Origin: Spirochaetia bacterium
GTDB taxonomy: Bacteria; Spirochaetota; Spirochaetia; CADAEX01
NCBI GenBank assembly: GCA_963662795.1
Contig: OY759746.1
Location: forward strand, 1,920,001-1,984,000
Length of the DNA stretch: 64,000 nucleotides
Reading direction: 5' to 3'
Part shown: in pieces, positions 27,802 to 64,000 of the stretch
Position numbering within the stretch: position 1 is the stretch's first letter
Layout of the letters: each line of letters opens with the position of its first letter
Translations under genes and position numbers: made by a program
Notes under the pieces: generated by a model
Told to the model about the DNA's origin: nothing
Databases searched by the model: none
Seen by the model: the letters and a program-made list of their open reading frames with translations, nothing else

Positions 27802-28054
27802 GTCCGGCCTTGGCTCCGCCGTGCGGCCTGGACAAGAAGTGGGGGCACTGGTGGATAACAGCGGTTAAAGCGCTTCGCTCGGATTACCTCGCTTGACCTT
27901 CGGTATAAAGGCGCAAAAAAAAATTGATAAGTTCTATGAAAGTAATTAAAACTTGTTGGTTTAAAATAAAAAACGCCTTCATCGCTTAACCGCGGGACGT
28001 TATAAGCAATGTTCCCGCAAGAGAAAACCGCCCGGACCTCCGGCCGACGGGCGA
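27802..28054 (+). repeat. Composite repeat R19 (D|B)
   Basis: TAAC 27856-27859, GTT 27999. Confidence 0.9.
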
Positions 28055-28105
28055 GGATATGCAGTATAATAATATAGACCCTACAGATGTGGAGAGATAT
28101 AGTAA

Positions 28106-28663
28106 TTGGTAAGAGTATTTATTGATAATAATGTTTGGGATATTTTTTATCAGTATTCTTTAGATTTAAATAGTGAGTTACCAATAAATGAATTTGATAT
28201 TATAATAACAAAAGAAGCGGAATTTGAAATTAAAGGAATGCCTGATAAGAAAAAGAAATATGCTGAATATCAAATAAAAAATCGTAATATAAGAACTGAT
28301 AAATTATTTGGATTTTTTAATGAGAATTATTTACTAAGTGAGCAACGAGTTGGTGGATATAGTACTTATGATAACAAGGTTGTTGGAGGAAGATTTATAA
28401 AAGATGATGAGTTTAAAATTATAAAAGAAGAAAGAAACGCATTAGGAAGTAAAAAGAAAAAAACGGGGCTTTATAATAATGAAGCAGATATAGCAATAGC
28501 TGCAAGATCATTAAATTCTATAGTATTGACTTGTGATAATAGAAAAGTACTTAAAAGAGCAAAAAATCGAAAAGGTTCAATGGTAATAGATTTAAGTGGA
28601 TTTAATAATACAATAACAATAAGGCAAATAATTTCTGAATTTATGAAAAAATATTTTAACTAA
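28106..28663 (+). CDS. PIN-like domain protein
   Basis: VFIDNNV...E...ADIAIAA...LTCD acidic pattern. Confidence 0.55.
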   Translation: MVRVFIDNNVWDIFYQYSLDLNSELPINEFDIIITKEAEFEIKGMPDKKKKYAEYQIKNRNIRTDKLFGFFNENYLLSEQRVGGYSTYDNKVVGGRFIKDDEFKIIKEERNALGSKKKKTGLYNNEADIAIAARSLNSIVLTCDNRKVLKRAKNRKGSMVIDLSGFNNTITIRQIISEFMKKYFN

Positions 28664-28779
28664 AAACTATATCAACCTGACATTCTCTTTGACATGATTT
28701 GTGCTGTTGCTACACTCGTGACATACAAATCCTGCAAAGCCTTGCAGGCTAGGAAATGCAGGTTATCTAAATGTTAAAA
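28658..28779 (+). repeat. Degenerate canonical attC (second family) nested in cassette
   Basis: TAAA(<TAAC)..CAACCTG...CAGGTTA..AATGTTA; similar to 35203-35330. Confidence 0.7.
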
Positions 28780-28824
28780 TTGTAAATTACAAATAATTAA
28801 ATAATTGTTTGAAAATGAAAGGAA

Positions 28825-29097
28825 GTCCGGCCTTGGCTCCGCCGTACGGCCTGGACAAGAAGCGGGAACACTGCTTATAACAGCGGTTCAAGCGCTTCGC
28901 TCGGAGTACCTCGCTTGGCCTACGGCAAACATCGTAGGATTTAAACAATAACTTTTTGAAACAACAAGTTTTTAAAAGACAATGAATAAAAGTATTGTGT
29001 TTACAATTCTTGATCTACGATGCTTCGCTTAACCGCGGGACGTTATAAGCAATGTTCCCGCAAGAGGAAATCGCCCGGACCTCCGGCCGACGGGCGA
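28825..29097 (+). repeat. Composite repeat R20 (B|B)
   Basis: TAAC 28878-28881, GTT 29042. Confidence 0.9.
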
Positions 29098-30492: not shown

Positions 30493-30764
30493 GTCCAGCC
30501 TTGGCTCCGCCGAGCGGCTTGGACAAGAAGCGGGAACACTGCTTATAACAGCGGTTCAAACGCTACGCTCGGAGTACCTCGCTTGGCCTTCGGCATATTT
30601 TATTATCATTCAATCAAAAAAATCTGTGTTTTCTTCTTTTCAAGTGTATTAAACAAACAAAAAAGATTTATAGAGTTTGAGCCATAAAACATCGCTTAAC
30701 CGCGGAACGTTATATGCAATACGACCCCAAGAGGAAATCGCCCGGACCTCCGGCCCGCGGGCGA
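30493..30764 (+). repeat. Composite repeat R21 (B|F)
   Basis: TAAC 30546-30549, GTT 30709. Confidence 0.9.
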
Positions 30765-30794
30765 GAAAAATGATTAGCTTTATGAGACACTCTA

Positions 30795-30837
30795 TATATA
30801 AAATCCATAGATTTTTAGTTATTTAATATGTTAAAAA
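30795..30837 (+). other. Internal attI-like site (copy 1)
   Basis: TAG.TTT.TA.TTATTTAATATG|TTA motif shared with 34201, 44894 and 62448; GTTAAAAA matches TTTTTAAC at 32098. Confidence 0.6.
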
Positions 30838-30923
30838 CACAATAGTTTTAGATATTCATAAAGGGAGTGCTGTTTAGTACTGTATAGTTCAAAATTAACC
30901 CGGAGTGGATGTTCGTGGTGTAA

Positions 30924-31883
30924 ATGAGCTTGCTTCCATTACTCTTGGAAAGGGATGAAAATATGCCAAATAGTTATAACTTTACATTTAAACCAATAAC
31001 TGGATTTGACCTCAATGATGTAAAAGAAATTACTAAAAATTTAAATGCTGCTAGACCTGAAGATATTACTCCAAAAGAAGCTGAGCGCACCGTATCTCAA
31101 TTATCCGTTTATCATTTCCAGTGGCCATACAAAATGACAGGCCAGAATTTCCCAATGTGGAGGATAAGAACTAACGACTACATCTTGCAGCGGTTTAAAG
31201 AAGCAAAAGAACTGGGTTACCCTCAACAAGTAAATAAAATTGAATATGGTAGAGCAAACGCAGAAAAAGAAACAATGTTTTATGCAGCGTCCTCACCTTT
31301 CACCGCAAGCATGGAGACTCGTCTGACGGCAGGAAAATCCTTTCATTTAACTAAATTTGAAGTCAAAAAAGGTGATACTTTAAATGTTGGCATGATAGGT
31401 GAGCTTGACCGCTATTGGCGAACAGGGCAAACCATCACCGAGAATAAAACCTATACATATCACTACGATAAGTTCTTCGAAATACTGAAGCAAAAAAAAC
31501 AAGAAGAGCTGATAGAATGTTTTGCGATTATTGATGCCTTCTACGCCTCTTGGATGGAAAAAAAAGGCAAAGAGAATTACATCATGACAGCGGCGATTAC
31601 TAGGCAATTATTCAAAGATAAAACCTTCGACGCCCTATGCTATCCAAGTGTATTGGATGAGAATGGAGTTAATATTGTAATTAAGCCAACGTCATATGAC
31701 GATTTGATCAAACCTATAACTACCTCCACATATCTTGCCGGAGTATGTGGTGCAGATAAGAAATGGAGTATGCTACCCCTTGTAAAAGCTGAAAGCATTC
31801 AATCAAATGGTTTAATCATATGGCCAAAAGATGCTGAAGTTATTATTACGGAAAAGTTACATCAAGAGTCAATAGAGCTATAG
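30924..31883 (+). CDS. RES-domain protein
   Basis: WRIR, GRAN...FYAASS...E and DALCYPS...N motifs; start may be 30963. Confidence 0.7.
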   Translation: MSLLPLLLERDENMPNSYNFTFKPITGFDLNDVKEITKNLNAARPEDITPKEAERTVSQLSVYHFQWPYKMTGQNFPMWRIRTNDYILQRFKEAKELGYPQQVNKIEYGRANAEKETMFYAASSPFTASMETRLTAGKSFHLTKFEVKKGDTLNVGMIGELDRYWRTGQTITENKTYTYHYDKFFEILKQKKQEELIECFAIIDAFYASWMEKKGKENYIMTAAITRQLFKDKTFDALCYPSVLDENGVNIVIKPTSYDDLIKPITTSTYLAGVCGADKKWSMLPLVKAESIQSNGLIIWPKDAEVIITEKLHQESIEL

Positions 31884-32097
31884 TAAAATGGGAATTATAT
31901 TTATAGATTTTGCATAGAACCGAAATATCAAAAAAAGGGATATGTATTTATTGAAATAGTACACCTATGTATTAGTAAAAATATTAAACTTTAAGTCCCG
32001 AAAGAAAACGAAAACGAAAACGCTATAAATGTATATAAAAATGTTTGATTTGAAATAGAAACAGAATAAAAATATTACAGAGAAAATATAAAAATGG

Positions 32098-32245
32098 TTT
32101 TTAACATTCAATTGCACCTGAAACCACCTTTTGTCACGGTTTTTGCTTTTTATTGGAGTATAGTAATAAGCGATGACGCAAAAACACATGCCAAATCCTG
32201 TCGCTACGCTCTAGACCGCTGGTACAGGGAATTGATGTGTTAAAT
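32098..32245 (+). repeat. Canonical-type attC nested in cassette
   Basis: TTTTTAAC.TCAATT..CCTG...CAGG.AATTGA..GTTAAAT. Confidence 0.7.
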
Positions 32246-32273
32246 GCACTGGAATATTTAGAAAAGAGGAAAA

Positions 32274-32516
32274 GTCCGGCCTTGGCGGTGCCGTGCGGCC
32301 TGGACAAGAAGGGGTCGTACTGCATATAACAGCGGGTAAAACACTGCGCTCGCCGTAGCTCGCTTGGGCTCCGCCAAACATCGCAGCTGAAAATAAAAGT
32401 AAAAGAACAAAACAGTTTTTGCTGAAGTATTCAGAAATTGCGATGCTTCGTTTACCCGCGGGACGTTAGCAGCAATGCCCCCGCCAAGAAAGAGGTGCGT
32501 GCCGTCCTGGCACGCA
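32274..32516 (+). repeat. Composite repeat R22 (F|G; variant hairpin B)
   Basis: TAAC 32327-32330, GTT 32465. Confidence 0.88.
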
Positions 32517-32627
32517 AGGAAACAGTGAAGTGCTGGTTCATTTATGAAACTGTAGATGTGTAAAATTGGAATTGCTGAGAAAAGGTTTGCAAACAGTATT
32601 TGAGAAACTTTAAACAATTAAATGTTC

Positions 32628-32660
32628 TTGCTTATAGTATAAACATAGTATATACTATAA
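32628..32660 (+). promoter_or_regulatory. mazEF promoter/operator
   Basis: TTGCTT-17-TATACT with palindrome ATAGTATATACTAT. Confidence 0.6.
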
Positions 32661-32676
32661 ATAGAGGTTAAGCTTT

Positions 32677-32913
32677 ATGGAAACTGTAATTAAGAAATGG
32701 GGAAACAGTCTGGGCGTAAGAATACCAGGTTTTATAGTAAAAGATTTATCCTTAAAAGACGGCTCATTTGTAGAAATTGAGAAAGAGGAAGATAAAATAG
32801 TCATAAAACAAAAGAATAAAATTAATTTAAAGGAAATGCTCAAGAACATAGATATTAATAATCTTCATGGCGAAATAGAAACAGAAGGTCCAGAGGGAAA
32901 AGAAATATGGTAA
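32677..32913 (+). CDS. mazE: MazE/AbrB antitoxin
   Basis: KKWGNSLGVRIP. Confidence 0.92.
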   Translation: METVIKKWGNSLGVRIPGFIVKDLSLKDGSFVEIEKEEDKIVIKQKNKINLKEMLKNIDINNLHGEIETEGPEGKEIW

Positions 32914-33248
32914 AGAAAGACTATGTTCCGGAAAGAGGAGATATTATCTGGTTAGACTTTCCACCACAATCAGGGCCTGAACAGAGGGGGAAAAGACCAG
33001 CAATTGTAATATCACCTAAGGAATATAATGAAAAAGTAGGACTTGGAATATTCTGCCCTATAACCAGTAAAGAAAAGGGTTATCCATTTGAAGTGAAGAT
33101 AGAAAGCAGGAAAATAGACGGAGTAATACTATCGGATCAGCTTAAAAGTCTTGATTGGAAAAGCAGGAATGCTGAGTTTATAGTAAAAGCAAAAAAAGAA
33201 GAAATGAAAGAAGTGATAGATAAAATCAGTGTATTGATATTTGAATAA
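32907..33248 (+). CDS. mazF: MazF endoribonuclease toxin
   Basis: YVPERGDIIWLDF..EQRGKRPA...CPITS...DQLKSLDW. Confidence 0.95.
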   Translation: MVKKDYVPERGDIIWLDFPPQSGPEQRGKRPAIVISPKEYNEKVGLGIFCPITSKEKGYPFEVKIESRKIDGVILSDQLKSLDWKSRNAEFIVKAKKEEMKEVIDKISVLIFE

Positions 33249-33264
33249 AGATCCCGGAATAAGA

Positions 33265-33556
33265 AATCAATCTGCCGTCCATGGCAGCTTGATTAAGGCG
33301 GGGGTCACTGCTGCTAACAGAGGATAATTCGCTGCGCTCGGAGTACCTCGCTTGGCCTGCGGCATATTTTGCTATCATTAAAACAGTTCAAATTATGTTT
33401 TTACTATATTTAAATGTATTCCCTAAAAGTATTATGTTGAAAAAGGTTTTAGCAAAACATCGCTTATCCTCGAGACGTTATGCGAAAGGCTGGCCGAAGA
33501 GGAATAGGCTGGGGGCGGGGGAGGGGAAGACGCCGCCGCACATCGTGTGCGCCGAA
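33265..33556 (+). repeat. Composite repeat R23 (G|H; variant hairpins)
   Basis: TAAC 33315-33318, GTT 33477. Confidence 0.85.
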
Positions 33557-33736
33557 GAAAAATTAATAAACTGTGATTTTTATAATCTGTAAGAGTGTTT
33601 GTATAAATTGCCATTATAAAAGCAGAAAAAATGAAAATATAATTTTATTTTAGCAGTTCCTTTCGTTTCATTTGATTATGGATTGGTTAATAAACAAAAA
33701 AAAATAAATCGCATAAAATGTAATATATTCTTGTAA

Positions 33737-33874
33737 ATGAAAATTATTTGGGATAAAGGTGAAAATAAAACTCTTAAGCTTGAAAGATGTATTTCTTTCA
33801 AGATATTTGCGGATTTGATTCTGGGGCTAGTTATAAAGTTAATTTGCAAAATATTAACCTTGGAATATAGCTGA
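33737..33874 (+). pseudogene. 45-codon BrnT-like toxin remnant in nearly ORF-less cassette (copy 1)
   Basis: MKIIWDKGENKTLKLERCISF resembles the BrnT N-terminus (WD..KN..N...GISF). Confidence 0.5.
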
Positions 33875-33889
33875 TTATGATAATTTTCA

Positions 33890-34155
33890 CCGTCTCACAC
33901 TTCCATGTGTTCGACGAAAACCGCCCCAGCCAAGAAGAGCCGGCCAGCCCATCGCATAACAGCGAATGGCCGGTTCCTGCTGTTTCTAAGGAAACAGCCT
34001 CCACCCAAATTGCCGAAATAATTCATGTTAAGAATAATGGAATAGAGTATAAACTTTTGGAGTAAAAAACACCATCGGCAACTTCGGTCATTCGCGAGAC
34101 GTTATCCACAATATCATCGCAAGAGGCATCGCCCGGACCTCCGGCCAACGGGCGA
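33890..34155 (+). repeat. Composite repeat R24 (H|I)
   Basis: TAAC 33957-33960, GTT 34101. Confidence 0.88.
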
Positions 34156-34164
34156 AGAAAATAG

Positions 34165-34230
34165 AATTTGCTGTATAATATACTTTATACATAACATATA
34201 TAGTTTTCTATTTATTTAATATGTTAGAAA
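34165..34230 (+). other. Internal attI-like site (copy 2) preceded by TATAAT
   Basis: TAGTTTTCTATTTATTTAATATG|TTAGAAA; GTTAGAAA 34223 matches TTTCTAAC 35202. Confidence 0.65.
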
Positions 34231-34314
34231 GACCCTGCGGGCGGCAGAGAATAAATATCCTTTATGTCTTATTAAAAAAAGTCGATTCTTTATGGATACA
34301 TTGAAGGAGTCCTT

Positions 34315-35193
34315 ATGAAAAAAGTATTTTTTTTTGGTGTACTTGCAGGTTGTGTTTTCTCTGCATTAATTTTCATAGGTTATTATGCGGTAACAAACCG
34401 TTCTTCAAAGAATAATATTGTTTCTCCTGAAGTTCAACACCAGGTTATACAAAATATTCAAGACATAAACAAAATTCTGGATTTTGCGGATGATAGTCTT
34501 GCAGAGTATACGGACAATCTTATGGAAGTACGCGAAATATTATTAAATGCAGATGCCAAGAAATACATAAATAAGGAAGAAAAACAGAAGATTACCGGTT
34601 TATGTGAAAAAGGTCTTCAGATAATTGAAACAGCAAAGTTTAATACTCTTCCAGTATTTCATAATAATTGTGATGGAGAATACAACAGGGTTATTCCGGT
34701 AACGCTTGATGCTGCAAAACCAACATACAAACTTACCATATCGTGTATGAATTTTAATAGGAATGTAGTTAATGTATTTATTAATAGTTTAGCATCTGAA
34801 ACAGGATTAGAAAATAATATTGCTGAACTTGATAAAATAGTATCTGCCGTTACATTAGAACGCGCACAACTGGGTGCTTATAAAAACAGGCTTACACATT
34901 CTCTTGAAACAGCAGAGGTTTTATCAAAAAAAAATGCGAACGAGAGACAGACTGAAATAAACAGAATCATTCAAAAAATAAAAACTGAACAACTGGTTCT
35001 GAGCGTTCAAAGCGCTAATGGAATATATTGTTTTGAAGACAGACAACAAATTCAAGTAAACTTTGATGAACTGAATAATGAATTAAACAGAATTAATGCA
35101 TTCTCACAAAAAACAATTGCAAAGAATAACAATATTTCCTTACTCTCTCAGTCAGATGCTGAAAACGCAATGCTGTATCTTGTAAAAAAATAG
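34315..35193 (+). CDS. Membrane-anchored flagellin-domain protein
   Basis: N-terminal TM; RAQLGAYKNRL and LSVQSANGIY..EDRQQIQ flagellin motifs. Confidence 0.75.
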   Translation: MKKVFFFGVLAGCVFSALIFIGYYAVTNRSSKNNIVSPEVQHQVIQNIQDINKILDFADDSLAEYTDNLMEVREILLNADAKKYINKEEKQKITGLCEKGLQIIETAKFNTLPVFHNNCDGEYNRVIPVTLDAAKPTYKLTISCMNFNRNVVNVFINSLASETGLENNIAELDKIVSAVTLERAQLGAYKNRLTHSLETAEVLSKKNANERQTEINRIIQKIKTEQLVLSVQSANGIYCFEDRQQIQVNFDELNNELNRINAFSQKTIAKNNNISLLSQSDAENAMLYLVKK

Positions 35194-35202
35194 CAATAAG
35201 AT

Positions 35203-35330
35203 TTCTAACAACTGCTTCAGCCTGATATTTTCTTTGTCACGATTTGTGCTAACTCGCTGCACTCGTCTTACGCACAAATCGCGCCAATCCGCTACGCGGC
35301 GCGAAAATACAGGTTAAGCAAATGTTAGAC
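35203..35330 (+). repeat. Canonical attC nested in cassette
   Basis: TTCTAAC AACTGCTTCAGCCTG...CAGGTTAAGCAAAT GTTAGAC. Confidence 0.85.
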
Positions 35331-35449
35331 AGACCCTTCGGGCAGATAAGAAAAAAACGCATTTCCGAAAGGAACCAAAAGGTGTTATACTTTGAGTGTG
35401 TTTGAATAAGCTTGAATACAGCCTTACAAAGACTAATTGGAGGTAAAGC

Positions 35450-35821
35450 ATGAATTTAGGAGCCTTTTCGGTTAGCTTAGCCGTAAAAAACATTGTTTCA
35501 TCAAAAGAATTTTATACAAAACTTGGATTTACTGAATTCGGGGGAGATATTAGTCAAAACTGGTTGATATTGAAAAATGGCGATTGTATTATTGGATTAT
35601 TCCAAGGTATGTTTGATGGTAATATATTAACATTCAATCCAGGATGGGATCAAAATTCAAATATTATTAACAACTACACAGATATAAGACTTATACAAGA
35701 AAAAGTGATTCAAAATGGAATAACACCTACTTCATTAGTAGAACAGGATAGTAAAGGACCTGCAAGCTTTACCTTAATAGATCCGGACGGTAATACAATT
35801 CTAGTCGATCAACACATTTAG
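35450..35821 (+). CDS. VOC/glyoxalase family protein
   Basis: SLAVKN...FYTKLGF...DPDGN.ILVDQH. Confidence 0.9.
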   Translation: MNLGAFSVSLAVKNIVSSKEFYTKLGFTEFGGDISQNWLILKNGDCIIGLFQGMFDGNILTFNPGWDQNSNIINNYTDIRLIQEKVIQNGITPTSLVEQDSKGPASFTLIDPDGNTILVDQHI

Positions 35822-35830
35822 AAACGAAAT

Positions 35831-35943
35831 GTCTAACAACGAGTTCGAGCGCGACAACCCTATGTCACGATTCTTGCTTTTCCGGCATTCGCCGGGCAAG
35901 AATCGTGACATTGAACGCGTTGCGGCTCAATTCAATGTTAAAA
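35831..35943 (+). repeat. Canonical attC nested in cassette
   Basis: GTCTAAC...GAGTTCGAGC...GCTCAATTC AAT GTTAAAA; TGTCTAAC matches GTTAGACA 35324. Confidence 0.85.
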
Positions 35944-35961
35944 AAAATAGAAACGGGGGAA

Positions 35962-36253
35962 GTCCGGCCTTGGCGTTGCCGTGCGGCCCTGGACAAGAAG
36001 CGATGATACTGGTGGATAACAGCGATTATTTCGCTGCGCTCCCTTTGGTCGCTTGGGCTCCTGCCAGTTGAGCTGGCAGATCGCCATATTTTGTTTTCAT
36101 AAAACCAGAACGACATGTGTTTTATGCTTTTTATGTTTGAAAAATCAAATAAATGTATTTTAGAGTTTAGCAACAAAACATCGAATAATCGCGGGACGTT
36201 ATCCACAATGCCCCCACAAGATGCGATCGCCCGGACCTCCGGCCGACGGGCGA
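35962..36253 (+). repeat. Composite repeat R25 (I|D)
   Basis: TAAC 36017-36020, GTT 36198. Confidence 0.9.
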
Positions 36254-37191: not shown

Positions 37192-37286
37192 AAATTGTTT
37201 CTTCGTAAATTACCCTACAACATGAAACTGAAAAACGTTGACTAGAATATATGTACAGGTAGAGTAATTACCTGACAGTAGAAGAA

Positions 37287-44576: not shown

Positions 44577-44845
44577 GTCCGGCCTTGGCTCCGCCGTGCG
44601 GCCTGGACAAGAAGGGGACGTACTGCTACTAACAGAGGATAATTCGCTGCGCTCGGAGTACCTCGCTTGGCCTTCGGCATATTTTACTTTCACTTAATCC
44701 AGACAATTTGTGTTTTATCCTTTTTAATGGAAAAAAACAGGAAACGGTTTATAAAGTTTGAGCCGTAAAACATCGCTTATCCTCGGGACGTTATCCACAA
44801 TATCATCGCAAGAGAACACCGCCCGGACCTCCGGCCAACGGGCGA
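44577..44845 (+). repeat. Composite repeat R30 (J|I)
   Basis: TAAC 44630-44633, GTT 44790. Confidence 0.9.
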
Positions 44846-44914
44846 AGAAAATAGAATCTACTGTTTAAAATACTTTGAACATAATAAAATGTATAGTTAT
44901 TTAATATTTTATCT

Positions 44915-45234
44915 TAATCGCTGTTGCGGTAGAAAAAATTATCTGGATAATTAAACAAATACACGAAATAATTTCGGAAATATTTAGCTTAAAGAGTTAT
45001 ACGATTATAACGCAAGGTATTAATTGTATTGAAACAAAAGATATAGAAGAAATTACAGCTAATAATTACTTATCATTCCCTAGTATATCAGCTCCCTTTA
45101 CAGAATTATTTGATATAGAGGAAGCAGTAAAGAAAAACATCAAAAATCATATACATAAACCATGTGATTTATACATTTCCGAATCAGTTTTACTTACATT
45201 AAAATACATTAATTTAAAAAAGAGATTCCTTTGA
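44915..45234 (+). pseudogene. 5'-truncated open frame abutting a damaged attI-like site
   Basis: ~105 open codons (LIAVAVEKII...KKRFL*) with no start, beginning right after TAGTTATTTAATAT. Confidence 0.4.
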
Positions 45235-45364
45235 AAATATTTATTATCAACCTAAAAGTTTTGTTCAGTCATGGAATAAATATTCACCAGTAATTATTGA
45301 AACAATTATTAATAAAATGTATCTACAGTAAGGATTTTTATCTAAATAAAAGAGAATATAAATT

Positions 45365-47227
45365 TTGAAAAATATGGATCTTCTTCAGACGAATATAACA
45401 AATGATTTATCTCGGTTAAAAAAAATAATTGATAAATATTCAACATATTCAATTGTTGGATGGTGTTTTTCCTATAATCTTTTTATAGGAAAAACAGATC
45501 GAGAAGAAGTATTACATTCTCCTGCAAAACAATTATCTTTTCTTATTGGAGTTATGCTTTCAATAAAAGAGCCTGATGATCCAAAAGAACTTGATAATAG
45601 TAAATGGGAAGAAATATTAGCGATACTTAACAAATTATTCAACCATTACTGGCTTTTATATATGCCTGAGAAAGAGAATAGTATTAATGCAGAAAAACCA
45701 ACAGAAGAATGGTTTCAAACAAGAGAAATATCATTGCAGGCATTTTTTAATTATTTTGATTCTGGATTATTAGCTTCTATTGAACAAGTTAAAGACAGAA
45801 TTATGAGATACTTACTCCCATTTGATGAAATTATAGAGCAGAAAATTGGTATTTCTTTAACTAAATCTCTAGAAATATGTGATCATATTGTAAAAAAAAT
45901 GCAAAATGTTTTAGATGAGATTTCTGTTCTTAAAATCGAAGAACAAAAAATACGTGAAGAACTTATACGAAAGCATATAGGGAAAGAATGGGCGATTGAA
46001 GAAATGAGGCGAGAGTCTTTTTCTGGGCCATATATAAGTATTGCAAGTAAACTATTTGAAAACTTAAACAAAATGGGTAGTGTTGATGCTGAAGATATTA
46101 AAAAGAAATATGGTGATTTAGGTAAAAAATACTGTGAACTGTTTATCATAGAAAGAGGACAAGGTCCAGAAATAAGATACCCAACTGATAGAAGTATTTT
46201 TGAAATTAAACCAATAATCAGTGATAAAAAAGGAAAACTATTATGCCCTGCTTCAAATTCATTGTATCTTGCATTAAACACATTAGGTGAAAAGATTATA
46301 TTAGAAAGTGAAGAAAAATCTAAATATTTACAATTGAGAGATAAATCCCTTGAAAATGAAGCACTATCAATTTTACAGGAATTAGTTAATAAAAAAGCAA
46401 CAATTCTAACATCTGTTTATGAAACACCAGATAGCCATTTTGAACATGATATTATTATTGATGATGAATTATTGACATTAATTATTGAAGCAAAAGCATC
46501 CCCTCCAATAGAACCATTTCGAGATCCTGATAAAGCTTTTATTAGAATTCGTGATGCTTTTAAATCTGATACAGGTATTCAAAAAGCTTTCGATCAAACC
46601 AAAACAATATTAAAAAAATTAGAAAAAGAAGGACAAATCAATTTATATAATAAAAAAGGAGATAAAATATACACATTAGATTATGATTCAAAAAAGTTGC
46701 AAATTGGAATATGTGTTACAAGAGATAATTTTGGGTCTTTAGCAACAGATTTATCATTATTATTAGAAAAGGAAAAAGATGATAAATATCCATGGGCTTT
46801 GAATATACTTGATTTAAAAAACTTCAAAGATGCTTGGTTATATTTAAAAAAAGGAGAAAGAGAGTTTTGTCAATTTCTAACAGAAAGAATAAAACTTCAT
46901 GGTAAAGTTTACTCTGCCGATGAACTTGAATATGCAGGTTATTTTTTTCTGCATGGTGACTTTTCATCTTTTAATACATCTGAATTTGATCGAATTCAAT
47001 TAGATCCACATTATTCTGATATCTTTAATGATATTTATTATGCACAATATCATGGTGGTCCGGCTGCTAATATTAAAGTCAAAAAGACACCAGTTTTAAC
47101 AGATTTAAGAAAATCAATAATTGAAGGAAAGCCTGTTTTTATAGATGCTAAAAAGATAAAAGTAGGAAGAAATGATAAGTGTCCTTGTGGATCGGGGAAA
47201 AAGTATAAGTTTTGTTGCGGGAGATAG
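45365..47227 (+). CDS. SEC-C motif protein with NERD/PD-(D/E)xK-like domain
   Basis: EHDIII...IIEAK; C-terminal KVGRNDKCPCGSGKKYKFCC. Confidence 0.8.
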   Translation: MKNMDLLQTNITNDLSRLKKIIDKYSTYSIVGWCFSYNLFIGKTDREEVLHSPAKQLSFLIGVMLSIKEPDDPKELDNSKWEEILAILNKLFNHYWLLYMPEKENSINAEKPTEEWFQTREISLQAFFNYFDSGLLASIEQVKDRIMRYLLPFDEIIEQKIGISLTKSLEICDHIVKKMQNVLDEISVLKIEEQKIREELIRKHIGKEWAIEEMRRESFSGPYISIASKLFENLNKMGSVDAEDIKKKYGDLGKKYCELFIIERGQGPEIRYPTDRSIFEIKPIISDKKGKLLCPASNSLYLALNTLGEKIILESEEKSKYLQLRDKSLENEALSILQELVNKKATILTSVYETPDSHFEHDIIIDDELLTLIIEAKASPPIEPFRDPDKAFIRIRDAFKSDTGIQKAFDQTKTILKKLEKEGQINLYNKKGDKIYTLDYDSKKLQIGICVTRDNFGSLATDLSLLLEKEKDDKYPWALNILDLKNFKDAWLYLKKGEREFCQFLTERIKLHGKVYSADELEYAGYFFLHGDFSSFNTSEFDRIQLDPHYSDIFNDIYYAQYHGGPAANIKVKKTPVLTDLRKSIIEGKPVFIDAKKIKVGRNDKCPCGSGKKYKFCCGR

Positions 47228-47240
47228 AACAATAAAAACC

Positions 47241-47348
47241 ATCTAACAATCAGTTGGAGAAGATTTGACTTTTATCACGGTTCTTGCTGATGCAAGAACA
47301 CGCGCCAACTCTATCGGGGTAGTCAAGCAGCTCAACTGAACGTTATAA
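47241..47348 (+). repeat. Canonical attC nested in cassette
   Basis: ATCTAAC AATCAGTTGGAG...CTCAACTGAAC GTTATAA. Confidence 0.8.
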
Positions 47349-47371
47349 AAATAAAAATGGAAAAGGGGAAA

Positions 47372-47668
47372 GTCCGGCCTTGGCGTTGCCGTGCGGCCCT
47401 GGACAAGAAGCGATGATACTGGTGGATAACAGCGGTTCAAGCGCTTCGCTCGGAGCACCTCGCTTGGCCTTCGGCAAACATCGTAGGATTTTATCTACAT
47501 AATTATAGCGTAACAAGTTTTAACAGGCGATAAATAAAAACTTTGTGTTTTTCATTCTTGGTCTACGATGCTTCGCTTAACCGCGGGGCGTTATGCGAAA
47601 GGCTGGCCGAAGAGGAATAGGCTGGGGGCGGGGGAGAGGAAGACGCCGCCGCACATCGTGTGCGCCGA
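47372..47668 (+). repeat. Composite repeat R31 (I|H)
   Basis: TAAC 47427-47430, GTT 47590. Confidence 0.88.
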
Positions 47669-62219: not shown

Positions 62220-62402
62220 GTCCAGCCTTGGCTCCGCCGTGCGGCTTGGACAAGAAGCCTGGCCACTACGTATAACACAGCATAACCGGTTCCGGCCATT
62301 CGGCCTTCACCAAAATTGCTTCGCAACTTCGGTTATGCTGGGAACGTTATGCTCAATACCAGCCGCAAGAAGAAATCGCCCGGACCTCCGGCCGACGGGC
62401 GA
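62220..62402 (+). repeat. Composite repeat R39 (A|K) with short 77-bp core
   Basis: TAAC 62273-62276, GTT 62346. Confidence 0.9.
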
Positions 62403-62414
62403 AGAAAAGATGTT

Positions 62415-62476
62415 GTGCTGTTTGATATACTTTAAACATAAAATATATAGTTTTCTAATTATTTAATATGTTATAT
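62415..62476 (+). other. Internal attI-like site (copy 4)
   Basis: ATATACTTTAAACATAAAATATATAGTTTTCTAATTATTTAATATG|TTA, near-identical to 34178-34226. Confidence 0.6.
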
Positions 62477-62529
62477 TGAAAATAATACTTTAGCAAAGCA
62501 CATCAGAAAAATATATAATAGGACTTTGT

Positions 62530-63159
62530 ATGTATAATATTACTTTTATAAGCACAATTCATATGGAAATTGGAAAATGTAATGCAGATGAATTATGTAA
62601 TATTTTAAATGAAATTCAACCAGAAGTTATTTTTTTAGAAGCACTTGATAATACTTATTCAAAATATGATGAGCTTTTGTTTTCATCATTTTATCAATTT
62701 CATGAAAAATTAGAGATAAAAGCAATTCAGAAATACTGTATAAATAATTCTTGTAAATATGTTCCAGTACTTAATAATAGTTTATCAGTAGCCTTTGACA
62801 AAAAAAGCAAAATAATTTGTGAAAATAATAAAATACAAACATTGATGGATAAATATAATTCATTGGCTTCTAAACATGGTTTTAAATTTCTTAATAGCGA
62901 TGAATGTATTGATTTGGAAGAAGAGATGCGTCTTTTAGGAAATAAAATATTAAATGATATAGAAATGGAACAAGCCGTTAATTTAGATATTAACCTATAT
63001 GAAGACTCAATGTTAAGTAATATATATTCATATTGCAAGAATAATAGTTTCAATACTGCAATCTTTATGTGTGGTGTGGCACATAGAAAATCTATCATTG
63101 AAAAAATAAAAAAATATAATATTCAGGAAAAAATAGATCTCAAATGGATAGTTTATTGA
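62530..63159 (+). CDS. Hypothetical protein (TraB/ChaN-like motif pattern)
   Basis: ISTIH...PEVIFLE...MCGVAH. Confidence 0.6.
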   Translation: MYNITFISTIHMEIGKCNADELCNILNEIQPEVIFLEALDNTYSKYDELLFSSFYQFHEKLEIKAIQKYCINNSCKYVPVLNNSLSVAFDKKSKIICENNKIQTLMDKYNSLASKHGFKFLNSDECIDLEEEMRLLGNKILNDIEMEQAVNLDINLYEDSMLSNIYSYCKNNSFNTAIFMCGVAHRKSIIEKIKKYNIQEKIDLKWIVY

Positions 63160-63236
63160 AAATTGAATCATTCATTATATATTTCACACATTAATAATTA
63201 TTTGTAGTGTCGTGAAATATTATTAAAGGTAAAAAA

Positions 63237-64000
63237 ATGGATACTATAGATAATTTAATTATTTATTTAAATAAATGGTTAAAACAATTTGAAAAAGATG
63301 AAAAAATTGCTTTAAAAATGATTGAATTACAAAAGCAATTAGAATGGGAAAAAGATGCTATTAGTAAATTACCTAAAAGTTTACTGGATAATAATAATAT
63401 TCAAATAAATAATGATTTTTATAAAGTATTATTAGATCAGTTTCAAGAAAAATATCCGATTACTGAAGAAAAAGATGAAGGATATATAGCTGGAAATATA
63501 GAAATAGTCGCTAGTTCAAGTTCAACAATTTTCAAAATAGTAAAATTATCAGAATTAAAAAATCAAAAGTATTTAAATGAATTATTAATATCAAAAGAAG
63601 AGATTGATAATATAAAACGTAAAATAGAGAAAATTGCTGAATGGTTTAATACGGTAAATGTGCAATTAAAAAATGAATTTGATGAAAGTATAGATAAATA
63701 CTATTTAAAGAATGAAAATCAAAATGAAAATTATATAATTGGAATATCCATGAGAAATTTAATAGAGCATCTAAAAGGATTTTTATGGACTAAAGTAAAA
63801 AATAGAAAAAGTCAGAAATGTTCAATGAAAATAATACTGAATGATTTAAAAGATCAAAAAATAAAATTAGATATGAATCAAATTGAAAAAATTAATAACG
63901 ATTTTAAAGATTTGCATAAAAATCTTACACAAATAGCAAAAAATCAAGATAATTTATTGAATATAAAAATTGTATTCAATGAATACATAAATATCATATA
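63237..64000 (+). CDS. Hypothetical protein, runs off window end
   Basis: ATG 63237 after AAAGGT; frame appears open to the end. Confidence 0.6.
   Translation, partial: MDTIDNLIIYLNKWLKQFEKDEKIALKMIELQKQLEWEKDAISKLPKSLLDNNNIQINNDFYKVLLDQFQEKYPITEEKDEGYIAGNIEIVASSSSTIFKIVKLSELKNQKYLNELLISKEEIDNIKRKIEKIAEWFNTVNVQLKNEFDESIDKYYLKNENQNENYIIGISMRNLIEHLKGFLWTKVKNRKSQKCSMKIILNDLKDQKIKLDMNQIEKINNDFKDLHKNLTQIAKNQDNLLNIKIVFNEYINII

Follow-up and report, generated by a model that had tools for sequence, protein, structure and literature searches.

An attI-like docking site inside the cassettes of a giant spirochaete array, and the conventional cassettes nested there

Integrons are usually described as one integrase, one attI site and one flat array of cassettes. 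The 64,000 nucleotides of spirochaete DNA analysed here, referred to as the window, raise the question of whether the cassettes of one array can carry an entry site for the cassettes of another. The window belongs to the genome of a Spirochaetia bacterium assembled as a single contig of 3.93 Mb (G000; contig OY759746.1; the window is G000:C1:1,920,001-1,984,000), and it lies within an array of ~333 kb that consists of at least 171 large cassettes, here called shells, with long attC-like sites and ~20-nt matched ends. Some of these shells contain, at one conserved internal site, smaller cassettes with canonical attC sites. The reading that we consider probable is that such shells are docking cassettes of the giant array's own system (system A), that they carry a portable attI of the type used by a classical spirochaete integron (system B), and that the system-B integrase inserted system-B cassettes there.

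Cassettes nested in cassettes

The outer units come first, since the nesting is meaningful only if each shell is one cassette. Their 5' part reads G/TTA (the stroke marks the crossover), a type-specific stretch of ~16 nt, AAGAG, hairpin B and then cargo; their 3' part reads hairpin A, AAGAAG, the inverse of the type-specific stretch, TAAC, ~140-170 nt and CGCGGGACG/. A regular expression for CGCGGGACG/TTA, allowing up to two substitutions, finds 171 outer crossovers on the + strand between 1,849,044 and 2,180,706, and misses at least one more, at window position 62347. A recognisable outer TAACAG is present in 156 of 170 units, and 112 of these have a neighbour of a different type and are informative about pairing. 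In 104 of the 112 the 5' 20 nt fit the unit's own 3' extended core better than that of the next unit, with four equal and four worse. The shells are real single cassettes.

Within two shells of the window the inner level can be followed base by base (coordinates in Table 1). In the first, GTTAAAAA stands at 30830 and TTTTTAAC at 32098, and the TTAAAAA at the 5' end of the enclosed RES cassette is the inverse of the latter over a 9-nt match; the attC is recognised by the covariance model R1, described below, at 32099-32245 (E 3.9e-11). The second shell holds two such cassettes in tandem, one with GTTAGAAA at 34223 and TTTCTAAC at 35202, the other with GTTAGACA at 35324 as the inverse of TGTCTAAC at 35830, and a GTTAAAA at 35937 then lies 25 nt ahead of the start of hairpin A (35962). 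A first-pass annotation of the window, made by a model from the letters, had reported the motif, core and hairpin coordinates of these units, and every one of them checks against the sequence. Its gene labels fared unevenly: a RES domain is supported by Pfam for the gene at 30924-31883 (E 1.9e-10), but the "flagellin-like" gene of the first tandem cassette has a weak Flagellin_N similarity of 25 bits, below the 26.6-bit cut-off, and the supposed VOC gene at 35450-35821 has no Pfam match at E 0.01.

Inner cassettes of the second shell, at 34224-34250 and 35325-35345, start with a small GC hairpin (…GACCCTGCGGGC… / …CCCCTTCGGGGGG…) followed by a purine-rich stretch, and the same kind of start is found in the first cassette of the classical array of the relative G005 (L106:9915-9945). 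It may serve to stabilise the 5' end or to provide a context for ribosome binding.

The site at which the inner cassettes begin is marked by a motif. Its exact 15-mer, TTATTTAATATGTTA, occurs in the window at 30819-30833, 34212-34226 and 62459-62473, with a damaged copy of one mismatch (ATATT/TTA) at 44897-44911. At up to two mismatches the window holds seven copies where 2.88 are expected, and 3 of 100 shuffles reach seven; the window count alone is not striking, and the significance of the motif comes from its position and its genome-wide context. Inside the array lie 25 of the 30 genome-wide matches at up to one mismatch, and 28 shells in the genome carry the motif (at up to two mismatches) 60-170 nt past the outer crossover. 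Alignment of these 28 gives a module of ~85 nt that runs from hairpin B through …TAGTTATTTAATATG/TTA, is conserved across at least five shell types and ends ATATG/TTA ~120 nt inside the shell. Two of the shells (rel -22857 and rel 88443) were set aside as doubtful and 26 were analysed. In these 26 copies ~60 nt to the left of the junction are conserved and the cargos all differ, the only shared stretches being insertion sequences; the docking site is in this way a G/TT crossover whose left arm is conserved and whose right side varies.

The cargo ends pair as those of captured cassettes do. An exact 7-nt inverse of the G plus the first six cargo bases is present in the shell's own cargo in 17 of the 26 shells, against 90 of 618 (14.6%) in a cross-shell control, and 14 of the 17 matches extend to 8-11 nt. 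These counts bear out the proposal that conventional cassettes are nested in larger ones at one fixed, conserved site. The outer ends of the same shells pair at an edit distance of at most two in 21 of the 26; of the other five, one failed and four had an outer core that the script did not find.

The attC sites of the inner cassettes form a family of their own. The model R1 was built from 13 inner sites and works largely on sequence, because the automatic structure captured the central stem only; an earlier hairpin scanner of our own was dropped in its favour, being too insensitive (11 matches, against 4 and 6 in controls). On the + strand of the 337 kb searched R1 has 27 matches at E<0.01, of which 24 fall in 21 motif shells; the other three are in shells with a short junction variant, …CAGTATAAT…ATATG/TTA (one of them eroded), and the remaining shells have none. 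A search of the whole genome also gives 27 matches, two of them reverse-strand readings of the same sites, all within the array and none outside it. The canonical, B-type attCs of this 3.9 Mb genome are restricted to shells with the module or its short variant. With their canonical attCs and pairing ends, and with a pool that is found in integron arrays, the inner units have the properties of gene cassettes.

What follows the last inner attC, directly before hairpin A, is a short remainder in two main forms, TTATAAAA…ATAGAAACGGGGGAA or TTA…ACTGGAATATTTAGAAAAGAGGAAAA, which is not shown by those non-motif shells of the same types that were looked at. From this remainder the putative empty unit would be reconstructed as a gene-less cassette of module plus remainder. 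When the 26 sites are reconstituted in this manner their folding energies are unremarkable (mean z -0.4 on the top strand and -0.36 on the bottom, against -5.3 for the 13 inner attCs), and the motif shows neither a conserved AAC partner upstream nor excess folding energy, the attC-type features looked for. Because it does not fold, the site is attI-like and not attC-like.

Read data were consulted and are not used as evidence: read contigs break at repeats, leaving joints near the module with sides under 32 nt, and the RES cassette has no read cover in two runs of "organism B".

Likeness of the docking site to attI

Classical integrons with the inner attC family are found in relatives of this genome. 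R1 has matches in 30 of 101 relatives, with dense arrays in G008:C8, G011:C1 (two arrays), G057:C6, G083:C3 and G005:C1. In the five arrays checked, a divergent integrase of ~405-419 aa stands near the array start; the first attC lies within ~1-2 kb of it in four of them, and in G011 the nearest strong R1 match is ~6 kb away. The two system-B integrases that were scanned both pass the integron-integrase model TIGR02249 (381-384 bits against a cut-off of 265), and the system-B enzymes carry the typical integron-integrase insertion. Homologues are present in 64 of 201 sampled genomes of the class.

One gene is shared between the nested and the classical setting. Between the 378-aa inner gene found in the shell at rel 221053 and the final cassette in the classical array of G008, identity is 77.5% across 1,072 nt, the R'' core being kept, and the protein of this inner gene is 55% identical to that of a gene between two attCs in the classical array of G005. 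One nested gene is accordingly known as an independent cassette, which the first-pass annotation had named as a check on its proposal; queries with the RES gene and the gene at 35450-35821 returned no homologue from five relatives.

The attI sites of the relatives could be located by pairing. In G005, G008, G011, G057 and G083 the first cassette opens with 8-10 nt that form the exact inverse of R'' in the first attC, and the attI of G145 was verified likewise over 9 nt. These verified system-B attI sites end …AATATG/TTA or a close variant, and the canonical attCs measure 70-150 nt. Set against the G145 site, the final 16 nt of the module consensus agree at 15 of 16 positions at the crossover. 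Over 31 nt anchored at the crossover and compared ungapped, the module matches the attI of G083 at 20 positions and that of G057 at 18. Among the 21,513 GTTA sites of the non-array genome three reach 20/31 and 60 reach 18/31, and a null that takes the best score per 700 nt has its 99th percentile at 18 and peaks at 20 in 2,000 trials. A further shared element is ATGCTGTATAAT, ~110 nt upstream of the G083 crossover, whose counterpart in the module, CTGCTGTATAAT, lies ~45 nt upstream. The docking site thus combines a G/TT crossover and an absence of hairpin tendency with likeness to verified attI sites of classical spirochaete integrons, as expected of the attI-like site that had been proposed.

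That proposal had also called for comparison with the attI beside the array's own recombinase, and here no likeness was found (9/31, the null level). The two tiers therefore seem to belong to two recombinase systems: the motif is unlike the array's own attI and is of the classical-integron type. The earlier notion of a two-tier arrangement stands as far as the nesting goes but not as a single system.

A donor attI with the same 21-mer (at up to two mismatches) was sought in 400 genomes of the class; single matches in 10 of them equal the level of a reversed-pattern control, and the eight match places inspected had neither integrase nor module context. Single copies of the module itself are present in G005 and G008, both from a different genus within the family. 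In G008 the cargo opens with nine bases inverse to R'' in a canonical attC; in G005 the cargo end appears disrupted. Four metagenome contigs were matched, three of which hold real modules in shells with cargo, the fourth being a chance match, and one of the three has an inverse core ~150 nt before hairpin A.

It might be argued that the motif is no attI but a preferred secondary GTT site or a decayed attC half, that recombination of attC with a secondary site or with another attC brought the cassettes in, and that the likeness to attI is convergence on a core preferred by the integrase. Use of secondary sites by integrases is known (PMC10127599), the attI sites of the nearest relatives resemble the motif no more than the null does, and the short junction variants (…CAGTATAAT…ATATG/TTA) hold inner attCs too. 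Against this, ~60 nt left of the junction are conserved in 26 copies and at least five shell types, which together with the 15/16 match to a verified attI anchored at the crossover, the absence of hairpin tendency and the confinement of all inner attCs of the genome to motif or variant shells makes this explanation unlikely.

Two recombinases and the order of assembly

The recombinase of system A is encoded at 1,846,782-1,847,801 (+), on the same strand as its cassettes. It is a Xer-like tyrosine recombinase of 339 aa, transcribed towards the array. The first cassette begins ~150 nt past its stop codon, at …ACTACTAGGAG/TTATACG, and the 20 nt after the G of this first junction are a near-exact inverse of the stretch ending in TAAC of the first outer site. 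As in an integron, folding sites with inverse cores bound the cassettes and the first junction lies beside a recombinase gene; the enzyme, however, does not have the additional domain specific to IntI. It scores 200 bits with TIGR02249 and so fails the 265-bit cut-off, and in an alignment ~40 aa of the system-B integrases are missing from it. The closest named relatives are in Spirochaetia metagenome-assembled genomes (79% and 54% identity), and relatives adjoin shell-type arrays in G002 (80%), G011 (46%) and G057 (41%). The outer sites measure 139 and 172 nt in the two shells in which this was determined, and are flanked by hairpins A and B. Although they are long and have these two extra hairpins, they are attC-like, because the bottom strand of one (shell 34102-36198) folds into an R box, a bulge and an L box (z -3.7).

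Two more Xer-like recombinase genes are carried within cassettes on the opposite strand, at G000:C1:2050779-2051573 (L004:1435-2319 (-)) and 1881758-1882309 (L005:1435-2318 (-)). Both come after a toxin-antitoxin pair and a decayed outer site, and the second is split over two frames. A TATTATG/TTATAC upstream of the L004 gene was considered as an attI-like site and dropped, since the G is not kept in the L005 copy.

For system B, a tblastn search of this genome with five classical integrases finds one locus, at 412,098-413,305, as two adjacent segments in different frames; it is the nearest system-B integrase gene to the modules, at a distance of 1.4 Mb. Upstream, the likeness to the attI region of G005 ends ~65 nt short of the expected crossover, and an IS30-like gene and then an IS3-like gene follow on the attI side (L009). 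Insertion sequences have replaced that side, so this assembly has no native attI of the system and no classical array, and its only B-type cassettes are those within shells.

The genome would on this evidence hold parts of two cassette systems, the giant array of system A and the classical spirochaete integron of system B. We envisage that ~26 system-A cassettes began as docking cassettes without an open reading frame (ORF), each with hairpin B, a possible promoter and one system-B-type attI copy; the right half of that site, which is short, would sit just before hairpin A. The system-B integrase, which is presumably the acting enzyme, would insert B-type cassettes at G/TT through recombination of attI with attC, a single time or repeatedly in a given shell, and the composite shell would then act as one A cassette. 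The docking site may still be active, and the TATAAT upstream of it is a candidate promoter that might drive the captured genes. More tentatively, the arrangement may amount to a hierarchy of two recombinases, in which Xer-type array cassettes bear a portable attI (and perhaps a promoter) for a classical integrase and the cassettes of one system become cargo of the other. With the dispersed sites as the only attI left for the classical integrase, the giant array would effectively have absorbed its cassette pool.

Several observations weigh against this account. The integrase gene of system B has a single frame change near a short A run and reads as frameshifted, which makes present-day activity of the system uncertain; being a single indel in a short A run, the frameshift may be real or an assembly error. 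No integrase stands beside any module. The attI likeness is at the null level for the closest relatives, G005 (9/31), G008 (10/31) and G011 (13/31), and the best matches come from more distant families. Nine of the 26 modules have no exact 7-nt core match, although several of the nine show near matches, a mutated core or a mutated crossover G. Empty shells, for which the first-pass annotation had suggested a search, were absent from the 28 module shells of this genome, the two of G005 and G008 and the three metagenome modules; because no empty docking cassette has been seen, capture is deduced from its products. The TATAAT promoter that had been thought possible is likewise unproven, as a simple sigma-70 consensus scan did not call the region, although a missed call of this kind is no evidence against a promoter of another type. 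Finally, most shells (~140) hold genes without an inner attC, and the docking route consequently does not explain most cargo entry.

The frameshift lends some weight to the idea that one enzyme, the system-A recombinase, serves both site types, the module being a second system-A entry site and system B having no part in this genome. The system-A gene is intact where that of system B is not, and both site types cross over at G/TTA. Yet the system-A enzyme is without the insertion that integron integrases have, and it is this insertion that reads the extrahelical bases of canonical attCs. Moreover, its own attI is unlike the module, and the inner attCs belong to the family used by system-B integrons elsewhere, so that we regard this alternative as quite improbable.

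The reverse order of assembly, in which a conventional B-type array came first and units of 3' remainder, hairpin A, outer site, hairpin B and module were inserted between its cassettes, would suit the G/TT junctions that bound each such unit on both sides, but the outer cores contradict it by pairing over the cargo and not over the outer site (own better in 104, next better in 4), and with ~140 shells devoid of any B-type attC and no such unit met in the parts of the relatives' classical arrays that were read or scanned, where no dedicated search was made, it can be given very little credence.

Relation to known systems and further features of the window

The preferred reading, system-A docking cassettes with a portable system-B-type attI, departs from each known arrangement that it resembles. 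A docking site and the classical integron platform (intI, Pc, attI) have in common the G/TT crossover, a first cassette that begins with the inverse of R'' from its own attC, serial insertion at one site (two cassettes in shell 34102-36198), a TATAAT upstream and a sequence like that of verified spirochaete attI sites. Where an integron has one attI next to intI, however, the module is present in ~26 copies per genome, none of them adjoining intI, and each sits in a cassette of another array, so that it may itself be mobile.

Clusters of attC sites lacking integron integrases (CALINs) are usually defined as having no attI. The nested cassettes share with such clusters, described as attC arrays without an integron integrase (Cury et al. 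2016, PMC4889954), canonical attCs far from any classical integrase gene; they differ in that each cluster opens with an attI-like site, and the two halves of a larger cassette enclose the whole cluster. The putative empty docking cassette would be comparable with the ORF-less promoter cassettes that have been described (PMC6557892; bioRxiv 10.1101/2023.11.21.568050), in being gene-less with a promoter-like element. Its promoter is putative, and it adds a recombination site that captured cassettes. Off-target insertion at secondary sites (PMC10127599) also places cassettes away from the primary attI of an integron, but at scattered GTT sites, whereas here a dedicated, conserved attI-like site has received at least 26 different cargos. 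The "reverse" chromosomal integrons of Treponema (PMC3607928) have a recombinase transcribed towards the array, as system A does; the system-A enzyme differs in failing the integron-integrase model and in being without the insertion, and its sites, at 139 and 172 nt, exceed theirs in length and are flanked by hairpins. The part of PMC3607928 covered mentions nothing nested. More generally, the literature searched, PMC3607928 and PMC8352920 among it, contained no attI-type site inside a cassette, no nested cassettes and no array of this type.

The case is that of an attI-type site in many copies, without an adjoining integrase, carried inside the cassettes of another system. Such docking sites would offer a concrete route for merging the cassette pools of two recombination systems, and groups of cassettes could move as one unit with their own expression signal. 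An array of ~333 kb run by a recombinase without the integron-specific domain also bears on the evolution of integron integrases and of attC recognition. The whole picture is testable by standard recombination assays.

Table 1. Shells of the window with docking sites or junction variants, and their parts (window coordinates)
Feature	Coordinates	Strand	Details
Shell 1 (outer, system A)	30710..32465	+	G/TTA crossover 30709/30710 to next at 32465, by regular expression; own ends match, edit distance 1
Shell 1, 5' part	30710..30830	+	extended R' 30710-30729; hairpin B ~30738-30765; AT-rich leader; attI-like core ending ATATG at 30830
Inner cassette (system B), shell 1	30831..32239	+	RES-domain gene 30924-31883; canonical attC 32099-32239
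Shell 1, 3' part	32240..32465	+	docking-site remainder 32240-32273; hairpin A from 32274; outer attC-like site from TAAC 32327 to G 32465
Shell 2 (outer)	34102..36198	+	crossovers by regular expression; own ends match, edit distance 2
Shell 2, 5' part	34102..34223	+	extended R'; hairpin B from 34131; TATAAT-containing stretch; attI-like core ending ATATG at 34223
Inner cassette 2a	34224..35324	+	gene 34315-35193; attC 35203-35324; 8-nt inverse core match; R1 E 5.1e-16
Inner cassette 2b	35325..35937	+	gene 35450-35821; attC 35831-35937; R1 E 3.9e-12; cassette chain parsed
Shell 2, 3' part	35938..36198	+	docking-site remainder 35938-35961; hairpin A from 35962; outer attC-like site from TAAC 36027 to G 36198
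Shell with damaged docking site	44790..47590	+	ATATT/TTA at 44897-44911; inner attC 47241-47348 (R1 E 8.3e-12)
Shell with intact docking site	62347..64000	+	motif 62459-62473; cargo runs past window end; inner attC at genome 1984038-1984143
Shell with short, eroded junction variant	27999..29042	+	…CAGTATAATAATATAG…; inner-type attC 28658-28779

The cargo of the shell at 44790..47590 is an ORF of 620 aa that ends in a SEC-C motif. Among the neighbouring cassettes, that at 33477-34101 is short, has no long ORF and exists in four copies in all (the three others measure 624-661 nt); it has an end type of its own, and a G-rich stretch replaces hairpin B. A MazE/MazF (PemK-like) toxin-antitoxin pair at 32677-33248 forms its own shell cassette, and other parts of the array hold VapBC and additional MazEF pairs. 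A short hairpin, TGTACAGGTAGAGTAATTACCTGACAGT, precedes hairpin A by ~10 nt in many shells without a docking site, at ~37247-37275 of the window and in about 30 others.

Two insertion sequences recur in the array. One of ~1.28 kb is present at nine places (for example rel 203351, 152709, 134467, 135852, 167861, 233783, 240822 and -14883), once just 7 nt past a docking-site crossover. The other, of ~1.79 kb, concerns two inner attCs (rel 154684 and 226907), where it stands at the R' end with the same flank both times.

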